From Escherichia coli O127:H6 str. E2348/69 (GTDB lineage Bacteria > Pseudomonadota > Gammaproteobacteria > Enterobacterales > Enterobacteriaceae), in the NCBI RefSeq assembly GCF_000026545.1, contig NC_011601.1: a stretch of DNA of 64,000 nucleotides. One strand, 5' to 3'. The position numbers and the translations under genes are program-made. Shown here piece after piece: positions 9,511 through 64,000 of this stretch. Under the pieces are notes generated by a model that saw only the letters and a list, made by a program, of their open reading frames with translations, had not been told where the DNA came from and made no database searches. The first letter of the stretch is position 1. The number at the start of each line of letters is the position of its first letter.

Positions 9511-12500
9511 TTACTCAACAGGTTGCGGACGCGCAGGAGCGGCAGAGGCATGATGCGTTGCCGTATGACCACCTGCGGCACCTTTGCCTTCGAAGGCAAA
9601 AGTAGGGCGCTGCCAGTCACTGTGACGCGGTGCCTCCGGAACATATTCCGGTGCCGGAGCGCGCGTCATTGGCGCGGTAGCGTGGTTATGCTCAACGGTG
9701 ATCTCTGGTTCAACCGCGGCTACCGTTTCAACTTCTGCTGCGACTTCAGCGACGACTGGCGCGGCAGGTTGAGCAACAACTTCAGGTTCAGCAACCACAA
9801 CCTCAGCAGTTTCGGCAACTTCTTCAATATCTGCCGTCTCTTCCTGCGGTTCAACTACCGGTTCTGCGTGTTCTGCAACTTCCTGGGCTACGGCAACATC
9901 AGACTCGGTAATCACCTGCGGCTGTTCAGTTACCGCGGCGGCAATTACTACAGGATGCGTCGTTTCAACCACTTCCGGTTGCGGTTCGGCAATCTGAACG
10001 GGGGCTTCTACGACTTCAGCCACTTCTTCAACAACTGGCGCGCTAACAACCGGTTCGACAGCGGCGGCGACAGGGACCTCAGTCACCATCGGCTGCACTT
10101 GTACTTCTTCCTGTTCGCGCTGCTCTTCGACCTGTACATCTTGCGGACGTACAATTGGATAGCGGATCCAGACTTTGCCAGAGGCCAGTTCCGGAGATGC
10201 GCAAGCTACGGTCAACGGCATTGGCGATTGGGTTGGATAACGCTCGTCACGATAGCGACGACGACGCTGACCACTCACGCGCAGGTGACGAGGCGAGCGG
10301 CGAGAACGACGCGGCATGCCACCGTTGTCACGGTTATCGGCATTGTTCTCTTCTTGCTGTTCTGGTGCAGCTTGCGCTACGACTGGCAGCGGGACTTTCA
10401 CCAGTTCTGTGCGTGGAGCTGGCGCTTCCTGAACAATTGGTTCGGCAGCGACAGTTTCTTCAACCACCGGTGCGACTACCGCTTCTTCGGCTACGCTTTG
10501 CTCGTAACGCACTTTCTGATTGAGCTGACGCTGTTTACGACGCGGCTGAACCGGACGTACACGTTCTTCCTGTTCGGTTTCCTGAACAGATTGCTCTTCA
10601 ACATTCAGCGCCTTCGCTTCTTGTTGCGCCTGACGTTTATCATCGTTACGGCGGCGGCTACGTTCACGACGCGGCGCTTGCTGCTCGTCGGTGGTACGCG
10701 CTTTTTCCGTTACCTCAGCCTGCTGACGGCTCTCACGCGTCTCGACAGTCTGCTGCTGTGCCTGGCGACGATTACGACGGTTTTCTTCGCGATTATCGCT
10801 GCCTTCTGTACGTTCACTACGGGAGTCGCGGCGCTCATTACGGTCACGGCGGTTGTTCTGACGAGGCTTGCGACGATCCTGTTGACGTTCCGGTTTCGCT
10901 TCTGCTTTCGGTGCTGGTTGCTCGGCCGGTTTGGTTTCTTCACCACCGCTGAACAGCGCTTTCAGTGCGCCGAAGAAGCGGCTCAACAACCCTGGTTGTG
11001 CAGGAGATGCTGGTGTTGCCGTTGCAGCTTTAGGTGCTGGGGCTACAACAGGCGCGGCAGGTTCAGCTGGGGTTGGAGCTGGCGGCACATCCGGCATGGC
11101 AAAGGTTGCCAGCGCAGGTTGTTCCGGACGCTTACGTTCAGCGAACTCTTCTTCAGACGGCAGCGCCATCGCTTCTTCATGCAGCTTCGGCAGCATGTAG
11201 CTTAAGGTTGGAGTTTCTTCCCCTTTACGCACGCGCAGCACATGGTAGTGCGGGGTTTCCATCTGATCGTTTGGCACAATCACACAGCGCACGCCGTCCT
11301 GACGAGTTTCAATCGCATTCACTGCAGAACGTTTTTCATTCAGCAGGTAAGACGCGATTGGCACAGGAACAATGGCGTGAACTTCCTGAGTGTTCTCTTT
11401 CAGCGCTTCTTCTTCGATCAGACGCAGAATAGAGAGCGACAACGATTCGTTGTCACGCACGGTACCGGTACCGGAGCAGCGCGGGCAGACGTGATGGCTG
11501 GATTCACCCAGTGATGGGCTCAGACGCTGACGGGACATTTCCAGCAGGCCAAAGCGAGAAATATGGCTGATTTGAATACGCGCACGGTCCTGACGCACCG
11601 CTTCACGCAGACGATTTTCTACCGCACGCTGGTGGCGTACTGGCGTCATGTCGATGAAGTCGATAACAATCAGGCCGCCGAGGTCACGCAGGCGCAGCTG
11701 ACGAGCAATCTCATCGGCAGCTTCGAGGTTGGTGTTAAACGCGGTTTCTTCGATATCGCCGCCGCGGGTCGCGCGTGCGGAGTTGATGTCGATGGCGGTT
11801 AACGCTTCGGTGCTGTCGATAACAATGGAACCACCAGATGGCAGACGAACTTCACGCTGGAAGGCGGACTCAATCTGTGACTCAATCTGGTAGTGGCTGA
11901 ACAGCGGGATCTCGCCGGTGTACAGTTTGATTTTGCTGCTGAAATCCGGGCGACCTAATGCAGCGATATGCTGGCGTGCCAGTTCGAGCACTTTCGGGTT
12001 ATCGATAAGGATTTCGCCGATATCCTGACGTAAGTAATCGCGGAATGCGCGAACGATGACGTTGCTCTCCTGATGAATCAGGAACGGAGCTGGGCGGCTT
12101 TCAGCGGCTTTTTTGATGGCTTCCCAGTGTTTCAGACGGAAGCTTAAATCCCATTGCAGCGCCTCAGCAGATTTGCCGACGCCAGCGGTGCGCACGATAA
12201 GCCCCATGCCTTCCGGCAGTTCAAGGCTTGCCAGTGCTTCTTTTAATTCGGTACGGTCGTCGCCTTCGATACGACGAGAAATGCCACCCGCGCGCGGGTT
12301 GTTCGGCATCAGAACCAGATAGCTACCCGCCAGACTGATAAAGGTGGTTAATGCCGCGCCTTTGTTGCCGCGCTCTTCTTTATCGATCTGAACAATGACT
12401 TCCTGACCTTCACGCAACACATCTTTAATGTTGGGACGACCATGAGCACTGTAGTTAGCAGGGAAATATTCGCGGGCAATTTCTTTTAGTGGGAGGAAAC

Positions 12501-60801: not shown

Positions 60802-61240
60802 ATTAAAGAGCATTAGTTCAGATGTGAATTGACATTGTGTGGCACAGGGTTGGGCTAGCGTGGGGGTTTGCTTTGTGTAAGAAACGGATGCTCTGCAAAT
60901 TACTACTAATGCTTAATGTTAGTCTGATCTGCTCCCCGATGATTAATACACCGCTATGTTAGTAATGTCTGTAGATCGCTGTGTGTTGCATCCATCGGTT
61001 GACCCCACAGTCCAAACCAGACTGTCAGCTTTGATTCGATTCTATCTACTCAACCTGTCAGGTAATGTCTGAGCTAATACACAGAGTACGGCTATCGCGA
61101 ACTTTAAGCTAGGTATCTGATACGCACCGTTCACTTGGTCGTACTTCTTGCACTGACTAGCTATCGTGCGCAGTTATTTATAGGTAATCTCCAGTGTATA
61201 ATTTTCCAACTTATGGGAGATTGTAAAACAGGAGGAATAT

Positions 61241-62083
61241 ATGAGGAAAAAATCGTTTGGACGTTGCCCGTTTGATTTCGACGAAGATGTAAAAAAAATA
61301 GCCGCGATAAATAAATATATCCATGCGAAATTTGAGAGGCATAAAAATAAAATAGATAACCTAAAGGGGGTGGAACAAAAATTGATGGTTTTACATTACT
61401 TTAATGTACTGAATGAACTTAGTAATCAGGCTATATTTTCTTTGAGTACCGGAGCCTTTTCAGCATCGGAAGTATTAACTAGAGTTATAATGGAACAGGC
61501 TGCCAATCAATTTTATATAGCAATTGATGATGGAAAAAATGCACAAGCATTACTCAAGGGTAGTAAGAAATTAGTTCATAGTAATGGGAAACGGTGGCTG
61601 GAGTGTTTAAAATCCAAAGAAATGACTAATCCAGCAGCAGATGAAAGGATTCGTATCGGAAAAGAGCTAACTGATATGTTTAATAGATTGTGGCCAAATA
61701 CACCTGAATATCCTGGAACCAAAAAGCTTTTCGAAGTAATTGGCTGGGAAACACACTATCATGCCTATTACGTCCCTCTTTGTGATTCAATACATACATT
61801 CTCTGATGATATGGCAAATATAGTATCTCTATATAATGCAATCCAAAGCGATAAAACTACTGCTATCGAACTCACTCTTGCAGTTAAACAAGAAAATAAA
61901 CGGCTGGCAATTTATAATGTCGTAATTGCTATTGGCCTGCGGTGTGAGGCCTTAGTAAATGTATTTAACTCTTTAGGTTATCGAGATATTATAACTGAAA
62001 TGGCGCCAACAATAGATGCAGTCAACCAGATTATAATTCGATATGATGATTTCGAACATTCCAGAATTTTTTATTGTCAATAA
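61241..62083 (+). CDS. hypothetical protein, AT-rich cargo gene (predicted mostly alpha-helical; function unknown)
   Basis: 280-aa ORF with AGGAGG SD 7 nt upstream and TATAAT -10 at about 61196; Lys/Ile/Asn-rich codon usage unlike the flanking prophage backbone. Confidence 0.7.
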   Translation: MRKKSFGRCPFDFDEDVKKIAAINKYIHAKFERHKNKIDNLKGVEQKLMVLHYFNVLNELSNQAIFSLSTGAFSASEVLTRVIMEQAANQFYIAIDDGKNAQALLKGSKKLVHSNGKRWLECLKSKEMTNPAADERIRIGKELTDMFNRLWPNTPEYPGTKKLFEVIGWETHYHAYYVPLCDSIHTFSDDMANIVSLYNAIQSDKTTAIELTLAVKQENKRLAIYNVVIAIGLRCEALVNVFNSLGYRDIITEMAPTIDAVNQIIIRYDDFEHSRIFYCQ

Positions 62084-62140
62084 TTAATTGGCAGAATTCG
62101 TACATGCACAACAACTAGTTATAGTTGACCTATTTCGCTC

Positions 62141-62709
62141 TTGAGAGACAACCATACTCAAATCTTCCACATTGCAGGAGATTTGAGTATGAATACGTCA
62201 CCGAGGAACAAAGACAGTATCATAGGCCCAAAAAGACCACTTCAGATATCTCATATCTGGGGGCTCCAAATCCGGCTTGAACTGGAAGGTAAAACGCGTG
62301 ATTTAGCTCGGTTTCAAGCAGAGCTACGGTGCTGCAACTGAAAAACTGGCAGTCCTATCCAATTTGAGATAACCAAAGGGACAAGAGAAGCTGTTTCTGC
62401 ATTGATAAAGCTTGGCAATTTACGCAGTAAAGACTACTTGTTCCGATCTCGGGTCGGTACTAACCAACACATATCAATCCTGCAATATAACCGAATCTTT
62501 CATAGGAGGGAGAAAAGCTTGGTCTCGAAGATTCGCTTTACAGCACACATTCCATGAGAAGAACAAAACCTTGCCTTGTCTGCAAGAAAACTAAGAATCT
62601 CCGGGTGATCCAACTTCCGTTGGGCCATAAGAAAACGGAAAGCACAGTTCGTTATCTGGGTATAGAAGTTGATGATGCATTAGAGATCTCTGAATCGATC
62701 GAAGTCTAA
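62141..62709 (+). pseudogene. decayed tyrosine recombinase (integrase-family) gene
   Basis: Recombinase segments spread over three frames: ...KRPLQISHIWGLQIRLELEGKTRDLARFQAELRCC / FEITKGTREAVSALIKLGNLRSKDYLF / SMRRTKPCLVCKKTKNLRVIQLPLGHKKTESTVRYLGIEVDDALEISESIEV (HxxR...Y catalytic tail). Confidence 0.6.
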
Positions 62710-62715
62710 AGCTGT

Positions 62716-62737
62716 CAGGGCTGCAGCAGCAGCCCTG
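62716..62737. repeat. perfect hairpin (9-bp stem, 4-nt loop) immediately after the recombinase relic
   Basis: cagggctgc-agca-gcagccctg; no U-tract follows, so not a canonical terminator. Confidence 0.5.
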
Positions 62738-63121
62738 TGCCAAGAGCGTACCAATATATGTCTCAAAAAATTGGGCACAGGTCAATATCAATACCAACAA
62801 CTCTGATTGTGCTCATGTGATTTACTCCTGTAGAAAACGCAGACAGTAAAAATATTTCACTGGCTGCTTCAGACAGGGCGTCCATCATATCATTACATAA
62901 CAATAGCGGGGCACGATATCTAGACATGCAGCAACGATGGACATAGAATGAGTACAATCAAAAGCATGTTTAACTACTTTAATTTAAAAATCTTAGAATC
63001 TTAGGTGTAGAGTTCAATACTTAGTTACATACCCTTTTGAAAGCATCACAAATCATAACTATGAGCCTGTTAAAGGCATAGGTATTCTTAATTAAGAGCA
63101 TTTTAATGAGAGAAAAATAAA

Positions 63122-64000
63122 ATGAAAAGACTATATTATACCCATCATGATAGTCGAACCTTAAAACTTGCTATAGAAGGTGATGTTTCTGATAATGCGA
63201 ATATTTTTACAGTAATTGTAGGTAAAAATGGCGTTGGAAAAAGCAGATTGTTATCTCAGATTGCTAAAGACTGTATTCAAGATATTCATTTCTTGAAAAC
63301 TTTTAATCCATTATTTGACAGAGAAATAACACCAAAGTTAATTGCCGTATCTACCAGCCCATTCGATAAATTCCCTCCAGGGCGTAGGTCATTAAATCAC
63401 CAAAGGAAAGAAAATAATTATCGCTATGTGGGTATGCGTGGAGAAGGCCCCTTCGGCGTATCAAATGCCGTATCCCTTTTATCTTCAGCAGCGAGAGGTT
63501 GGCTAGAGAAACTTGCTTATTCAGAAAATCCTGCAAATTTACTCGATGTTTTTCATTCTATTGATTTTGAGCCCCATATAGAGTTTGTATTTAAACCAAC
63601 TTACAACGGACCGGACACTCCTGACTATAACTTCATTGGTGTATATTCAGATGAGATATTAACGGAAGTTAAGGAGTTATATTTAAAATACAATATAAAA
63701 ATTGACAGGAAGAATATTGAGAGTCTCTTAAAGTTAAACTCCGAATCACGTCATGATATTTACGAAGCACTGGTTGAAATTAATCGATTTGAACCTGAAC
63801 GTAGGGCTGTAACCTTGTCAGTCGATTTTACCAATGGTGAAACATTGGTTGGCTCGACTTATGCGAATAATTATTTTTCTAGATCAATTCTTAAACTTAT
63901 GAACGCTGGCTTCATGAGATTGATGGATATGCGACTCATAAAAAAAAGCTATGGTCCCATGTCACTTAAACGTGCGAGCTCGGGAGAACAATGTTTATTA
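63122..64000 (+). CDS. ABC-type (AAA_15/AAA_21/OLD-like) ATPase, N-terminal 293 codons; runs off the window end
   Basis: Open frame from the ATG at 63122 with no stop to 64000 (absent from the ORF track for that reason); Walker A VIVGKNGVGKSRLL near residue 33; ABC-signature-like SSGEQ at the last codons; AT-rich. Confidence 0.7.
   Translation, partial: MKRLYYTHHDSRTLKLAIEGDVSDNANIFTVIVGKNGVGKSRLLSQIAKDCIQDIHFLKTFNPLFDREITPKLIAVSTSPFDKFPPGRRSLNHQRKENNYRYVGMRGEGPFGVSNAVSLLSSAARGWLEKLAYSENPANLLDVFHSIDFEPHIEFVFKPTYNGPDTPDYNFIGVYSDEILTEVKELYLKYNIKIDRKNIESLLKLNSESRHDIYEALVEINRFEPERRAVTLSVDFTNGETLVGSTYANNYFSRSILKLMNAGFMRLMDMRLIKKSYGPMSLKRASSGEQCLL

Follow-up and report, generated by a model that had tools for sequence, protein, structure and literature searches.

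A DUF5677 gene of Escherichia coli prophages as a credible but unproven single-gene, HEPN-like defence or toxin candidate

In HEPN domains as described previously, helix 2 carries an Ex3[KR] motif, helical elements are frequently inserted between it and helix 3, and helix 3 terminates in the catalytic histidine; in AbiV, AF0298 and Parep1/8 the canonical Rx4-6H motif is swapped for other arrangements of histidine and basic residues, and HEPN domains devoid of the motif have been described as probable binding domains (PMC3710099). A second defence-enriched locus of P2, which holds the gene fun, has been described by Vassallo et al. (PMC9519451). In Bacillota, the neighbourhoods of serine recombinases that serve as markers of defence genes are enriched for DUF5677, and one DUF5677 ORF from this group was tested in E. 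faecalis and fell outside the five ORFs reported as protective (10.1101/2025.10.07.681051). That ORF is a distant homologue of the protein analysed here and represents the sole published test of a DUF5677 ORF.

We analysed a stretch of 64,000 nucleotides of E. coli O127:H6 str. E2348/69 (contig NC_011601.1), hereafter the window, which contains a DUF5677 gene located in a Rac-type lambdoid prophage. The organization of this locus is like that of integron cassettes and of the serine-recombinase defence genes, as it combines a one-gene unit, a repeated site, a site-specific recombinase and variable, often defensive cargo. Unlike an integron, its recombinase is a tyrosine recombinase of 194-200 aa and not IntI, and the repeated sites are 24-bp palindromes and not attC; no flanking attC array was found in the window. 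PD-T7-1, PD-T7-5 (Vassallo et al. 2022) and HEC-08 occupy an equivalent cargo position beside the same short tyrosine recombinase. When compared to the single-gene HEPN Abi proteins, the DUF5677 protein lacks the Rx4-6H arginine and has its conserved arginine in helix 2. The features of the locus are as follows.

60868..60888 (+): decayed palindromic site (GCTTTGTGTAAGAAACGGATG), 5 mismatches to the 17-mer core
60924..61240 (+): conserved leader of the DUF5677 cargo unit, 317 bp; homology with the P2-borne copy begins at 60924
61197..61202 (+): TATAAT -10-like hexamer with a weak -35
61231..61236 (+): AGGAGG ribosome-binding site, 4 nt 5' of the ATG
61241..62083 (+): CDS of the 280-aa DUF5677-family protein, predicted to be all-alpha and to contain a HEPN-like core
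62084..62133 (+): 3' tail of the cargo, found only with the DUF5677 cassette and extending to the start of the recombinase module
62134..62751 (+): short tyrosine-recombinase module, a block conserved in all sampled E. coli contexts
62153..62165 and 62179..62191 (+): perfect 13-nt inverted repeat (CATACTCAAATCT / AGATTTGAGTATG) overlapping the recombinase start codon
62189..62709 (+): dead tyrosine-recombinase gene, disrupted by an 82-bp deletion together with frameshifts and a stop
62717..62751 (+): recombinase-proximal hairpin and boundary site (…CAGGGCTGCAGCAGCAGCCCTGTGCCAAGAGCGTAC), the site itself at 62735-62751; cargo diverges downstream
63122..64000 (+): 5' part of the Septu gene ptuA, which continues past the window end

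The ORF at 61241-62083 (+) begins with ATG and has no in-frame start further upstream. A preliminary description of this DNA had called it a well-formed gene, and we found its coordinates to be exact and its strong Shine-Dalgarno sequence, AGGAGG, to be real. The TATAAT that had been read as a -10 box is also present and, like the AGGAGG, is kept in the allele of strain S88 (~92% identical), but its -35 is weak (the best one is TTATTT), and because of this poor -35 a consensus promoter scan did not call a promoter for the gene; a promoter at 61197-61202 is plausible as judged from the sequence. The CDS has a GC content of 34.9% (GC3 27%), whereas the window as a whole has 50.5% and the neighbouring replication genes have 47-58%, in agreement with the AT-richness relative to these genes noted before. 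The leader (60924-61240) is ~92% identical to that of S88 with a single 19-bp indel. It gave no Rfam match, and its RNA folding z-scores (-0.98 and +0.71) showed no unusually stable fold. The only small ORF that both alleles retain (60956-61072; 38 aa, ATG start) lies inside the leader and differs at 4 amino acids between them; no clear ribosome-binding site precedes it, and a comparison of just two alleles says little about selection on it.

In RefSeq the product is WP_001227887.1, a DUF5677 domain-containing protein. Profile searches, which had been proposed earlier as a check, matched Pfam PF18928 (DUF5677; residues 49-195, E=8.9e-9) and, over the full length, phrog_4167 (E=1e-176), a PHROG with no assigned function, and neither family supplies one. 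The protein had been regarded as of unknown function, which holds in so far as DUF5677 is a family with no assigned function, but it is not an orphan, as RefSeq, Pfam and PHROG all place it in a family. It is a direct member of DUF5677, yet its E value to the model marks it as a divergent branch; all 44 aligned homologues, this protein included, match the Pfam model. Among 1.84 billion representatives, searched exhaustively with HMMER, about 53 clusters at 50% identity were recovered (E<=0.001), most of them single-domain proteins of 270-300 aa, and a profile built from the 44-sequence alignment retrieved nothing beyond DUF5677. For this protein, PADLOC-DB v2.0.0 held no family at E<=1 and NCBIfam gave no match, while a PADLOC scan of 10 homologues yielded two marginal matches only. 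Searches of PDB sequences with phmmer and the family profile returned chance-level matches only, and a literature search by accession found nothing. The plasmid search produced a single match, an 8.5-kb record of this very E. coli segment, and a single-protein scan of viral contigs produced 11 near-identical prophage copies. By sequence, this is a protein of DUF5677 and of no named defence system.

Structure prediction was more informative. The AlphaFold2 model built with the 44 homologues was confident (pLDDT 94.8, pTM 0.91) and comprises ten helices. As had been suggested for this gene, we compared the model by Foldseek, and after DUF5677 relatives the matches in AFDB50 included an LA2681-like HEPN protein over the full length (E=1.6e-7), together with AbiU2-like, Apea-like and generic HEPN proteins, so that six of the seven informative names were HEPN families. 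Foldseek against the PDB gave nothing significant and no HEPN Pfam family matched any of the DUF5677 members at E<=0.1, for which reason the assignment to the HEPN fold is structural only; likewise, no sequence or profile similarity of the DUF5677 protein to AbiV or to the AbiU2-like, LA2681-like and Apea-like HEPN proteins was detected. A HEPN-like fold is reasonably supported by the model.

The alignment of the 44 homologues revealed five invariant residues (R81, E85, F164, Y173 and H185) and nine conserved in at least 90% of sequences (E77, L79, N89, W119, P158, S183, D190, N193 and Y225). In the model, the helix 73-94 carries E77x3R81 together with E85 and N89, a hairpin spans 99-150, and the helix 170-186 ends at H185. 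A four-helix up-down bundle with an insert between helices 2 and 3, as in HEPN domains, is thus predicted, and the acidic residue of Ex3[KR] is found as E77x3R81 in the helix 73-94, which by its topology would be HEPN helix 2. R81 and E85 would lie close to H185 in the predicted fold. The defining Rx4-6H motif is missing, since none of the 44 homologues has an arginine 4-6 residues before H185. The earlier statement that no catalytic motif could be named is therefore true of the sequence, but in the predicted structure a HEPN-like core is seen whose conserved site is non-canonical. The protein may work like a HEPN nuclease; it cannot yet be classed as one. Dimers are the usual form of HEPN RNases.

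Comparison with seven other E. coli loci resolved the segment into two units, the DUF5677 cargo (60924-62133) and the recombinase module (62134-62751). P2-like prophages of S88 and other strains carry a copy (92% identical in DNA and 87.5% in protein) between the tail-fibre-assembly and tail-sheath genes, and homology between the lambdoid and P2 contexts runs from window position 60924 to about 62670. On the P2 map, fun lies between G and FI. About 56 of the 5,426 complete E. coli genomes (~1%) carry the gene. These E. coli copies fall at >99% or at about 90% identity. All sampled copies of the first group are in a lambdoid prophage with the same dead recombinase, Septu and hokD, and represent one recent clone; all those sampled of the second are in a P2-like prophage. 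In E. coli the gene is always attached to the recombinase module. Its ORF is intact at 16 of the 18 loci examined, with a stop in the L159 copy. The coding DNA of the two alleles differs by 7.6%, with a dN/dS of 0.36 and 35 amino-acid differences, none of them at a family-conserved position. Horizontal acquisition, already suspected from composition, is supported by the foreign GC content, by the ~90% identical cassette copy in an unrelated P2-like prophage and by the presence of the gene in so few genomes.

Distant DUF5677 homologues are mostly solitary, amid ordinary chromosomal genes of large genomes, and no defence-hotspot residence was found for those of Pseudomonas, Aeromonas and Sulfurimonas. 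One homologue adjoins a ParDE pair. A Vibrio parahaemolyticus homologue (L022 1290-2141; 22% identical) is a cassette (L022 1139-2259) of a chromosomal superintegron, with the ~125-bp array repeats, present in 16 copies in 10 kb, on its flanks. A search for an adjacent small antitoxin gene, as in type II toxin-antitoxin systems, revealed no partner common to the contexts. Next to the closest homologue outside E. coli (L003 8001-9563; 53% identity), 30 bp downstream, begins a 237-aa ORF that matched neither Pfam nor PADLOC and may represent a partner gene that the E. coli cassette lacks. For this homologue, a UniProt match from Aeromonas hydrophila shares the fold.

The recombinase module is homologous to seven loci (L023-L029) from 62134/62135 to 62742-62751, and lies at 11233-11871 in the P2-borne locus L002. 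Intact recombinases of 194-200 aa are encoded in L002 and L024 (Pfam Phage_integrase, E=5e-17); they consist of a tyrosine-recombinase catalytic domain only and are similar in size to FimB/E-type invertases. Intact recombinases include WP_001514314.1 of S88 and WP_001305361.1 of ATCC 25922. In the window copy, the internal 82-bp deletion takes out the region of the first catalytic Arg. The recombinase relic reported earlier beside the gene is thus real and frameshifted, but it is no leftover of the lambdoid phage and instead forms part of the small mobile unit of the gene. The module was present in 800 of the 5,426 complete E. coli genomes. The 13-nt inverted repeat (62153-62191) is conserved in every sampled recombinase context; it could act as a binding site, or as a hairpin with a regulatory or translational role.

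A 24-bp palindrome, GTCCGCTC-TGTGCCAG-GAGCGGAC, coincides with cassette boundaries in the E. coli loci; in its fullest form, GACAGTCCGCTC-TGTGCCAG-GAGCGGACTGTC, inverted arms flank an asymmetric 8-bp spacer. One copy lies ~26 bp 3' of every recombinase gene and the cargo beyond it diverges at once, while a second copy delimits the upstream cargo on its far side, directly abutting the DUF5677 unit in S88. Copies were located at L024 4431-4462, 6629, 7648 and 8711 and at L002 9985-10001. Within 3.5 kb of a recombinase (89 kb in total) the examined E. coli loci contain 24 copies, compared to none in the other 141 kb. The decayed site at 60868-60888 is homologous to an intact site in the same lambdoid position of JS316, its flanks aligning with L023 2758-2804. 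In a scan of 100,044 species' genomes, the exact pattern occurred at at least 120 loci (L030-L149) from Pantoea, Enterobacter, Erwinia, Hyphomicrobiales and others, often as arrays in which copies of like orientation are spaced 0.6-3 kb apart and separated by small genes. Among the matches listed, a recombinase homologue was within the flank in 1 of 120 of these loci, which weakens the interpretation of the palindrome as a recombinase-specific att site. The palindrome may be the site of the recombinase, served in trans elsewhere, or it may be a REP-like dispersed element at which exchange takes place for other reasons. With the terms tried we found no paper on a system of this recombinase and palindrome, which is not proof that it is undescribed; the palindrome as a mark of cassette boundaries may be a more novel observation than the DUF5677 gene.

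The surroundings of the gene include known defence genes. A complete Septu system (PtuA, E=1.9e-165; PtuB, E=1.1e-83; L001 22323-24318) lies directly downstream, and in the genome ptuA, which encodes an AAA ATPase, is followed by ptuB (HNH), an IS481 family transposase gene and hokD. In JS316, the same lambdoid slot upstream of hokD holds PD-T7-1 beside the same recombinase. Elsewhere the recombinase neighbours PD-T7-5 (EC1) and the PADLOC candidate HEC-08 (ATCC 25922, DA33135 and STEC1590), and other flanking cargo includes dynamin-family genes, a DUF4365 protein and unannotated genes. The cargo varies on either side of the recombinase. The gene thus adjoins Septu, occupies the P2 fun hotspot and uses a slot common to PD-T7-1, PD-T7-5 and HEC-08, a context that supports the proposal that it sits where prophages carry defence or toxin cargo. 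The recombinase module looks like a marker of a site at which small defence genes are swapped. Together with the palindromic sites, the module could be a genomic marker for further small defence genes and could account for their transfer from one prophage hotspot to another, unrelated one. Kinship of the DUF5677 protein to its slot-mates was considered and rejected, as hhalign gave a probability below 1% for each of PD-T7-1, PD-T7-5 and HEC-08 (0.3% against HEC-08/DUF3644 HEPN); in addition, HEC-08 has a canonical HEPN motif, RNRVVH, and the DUF5677 protein has none.

Taking these data together, our tentative reading, which we place somewhat short of an even chance, is that the gene encodes a prophage-borne, stand-alone, HEPN-like anti-phage effector of the abortive-infection type, probably an RNase with a non-canonical site. 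We hold it at this level because the defining motif is missing and the sole related experiment was negative, while the fold is reasonably supported and the context strongly suggestive. The cargo is a self-contained, horizontally acquired unit made of the leader, its own ribosome-binding site and the CDS. The core of the protein is predicted to be a HEPN-type four-helix bundle in which helix 1 (~44-69) and helix 2 (73-94) would be followed by the helical-hairpin insert (99-150), by helix 3 (170-186), which ends at the invariant H185, and by helix 4 from residue 188. The protein would remain inactive in the lysogen and be triggered by infection with another phage. H185 could then cleave RNA without metal together with R81, E85 and N89 of helix 2, which would stand in for the missing arginine of Rx4-6H, and this cleavage would halt the growth of phage and host. 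Such a function in anti-phage defence, which we infer, would give a role to a Pfam domain of unknown function if the gene indeed protects against phages, and a HEPN variant without the signature arginine would imply that motif-based searches for HEPN toxins should accept more sequences. A broader proposal, which we consider quite improbable as a whole, is that DUF5677 constitutes a new family of HEPN-like, single-gene Abi nucleases with a split site (helix-2 Arg and helix-3-end His) and is at the same time cargo of a previously undescribed integron-like exchange, in which the FimB-sized recombinase and the palindromes shuffle PD-T7-1, PD-T7-5, HEC-08, Septu and DUF5677 among lambdoid, P2-like, plasmid and island hotspots.

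Other explanations have to be weighed against this effector reading. The absence of Rx4-6H, in the light of the motif-less HEPN domains regarded as probable binding domains (PMC3710099), would also fit a non-catalytic HEPN-like binder or sensor, or a regulator benefiting the prophage through superinfection exclusion, anti-defence or control of Septu, which the gene always accompanies in the lambdoid lineage. We consider this unlikely, while granting it appreciable weight: E77, R81, E85, N89, S183, H185, D190 and N193 are conserved over 44 very divergent homologues, a polar set that resembles an active site, and copies of the gene lack Septu in P2-like prophages and stand alone in other genera. 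The gene could instead be a selfish, stabilising element of the recombinase cassette, an addiction or toxin-like gene comparable to the toxin-antitoxin cassettes of integrons and with no direct anti-phage role. Its constant association with the module in E. coli agrees with this, as do the homologues in an integron cassette and beside ParDE and the enrichment of DUF5677 near serine recombinases. However, we found no conserved antitoxin-like ORF or structured RNA, the neighbours of the homologues vary, the recombinase is present in 800 genomes and the gene in ~56, and the gene outlives a dead recombinase, all of which makes this explanation rather improbable.

If the gene were a neutral passenger, or were slowly decaying and at present without function in E. 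coli, this would account for its rarity (~1%), the single recent clone of lambdoid copies, the stop in L159 and the already dead recombinase. We find this decidedly improbable in view of the dN/dS of 0.36, the unchanged conserved residues, the ORF intact at 16 of 18 loci, the strong ribosome-binding site and the conserved leader. Lastly, a prophage location and a PHROG family might suggest a housekeeping protein of the phage (replication, morphogenesis or lysis). A match of this kind had been named beforehand as one result that would refute the earlier proposal, and none was found: phrog_4167 has no assigned function and tblastn against 50,697 deposited phage genomes gave no match. Furthermore, the gene occupies non-homologous positions in two unrelated phage types and non-phage chromosomal sites in other genera, and a housekeeping role is hardly tenable.

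Two minor observations were made in addition. At the 5' end of the DUF5677 cargo unit, 45-50 bp (window 60921-60970) recur with 88-95% identity on several E. coli plasmids (L026 12165-12214; STEC plasmids), without the DUF5677 gene and without an annotated feature at that position. The P2-borne locus L002 encodes a predicted membrane protein of 125 aa (11894-12271, - strand) between the recombinase and the tail-sheath gene.
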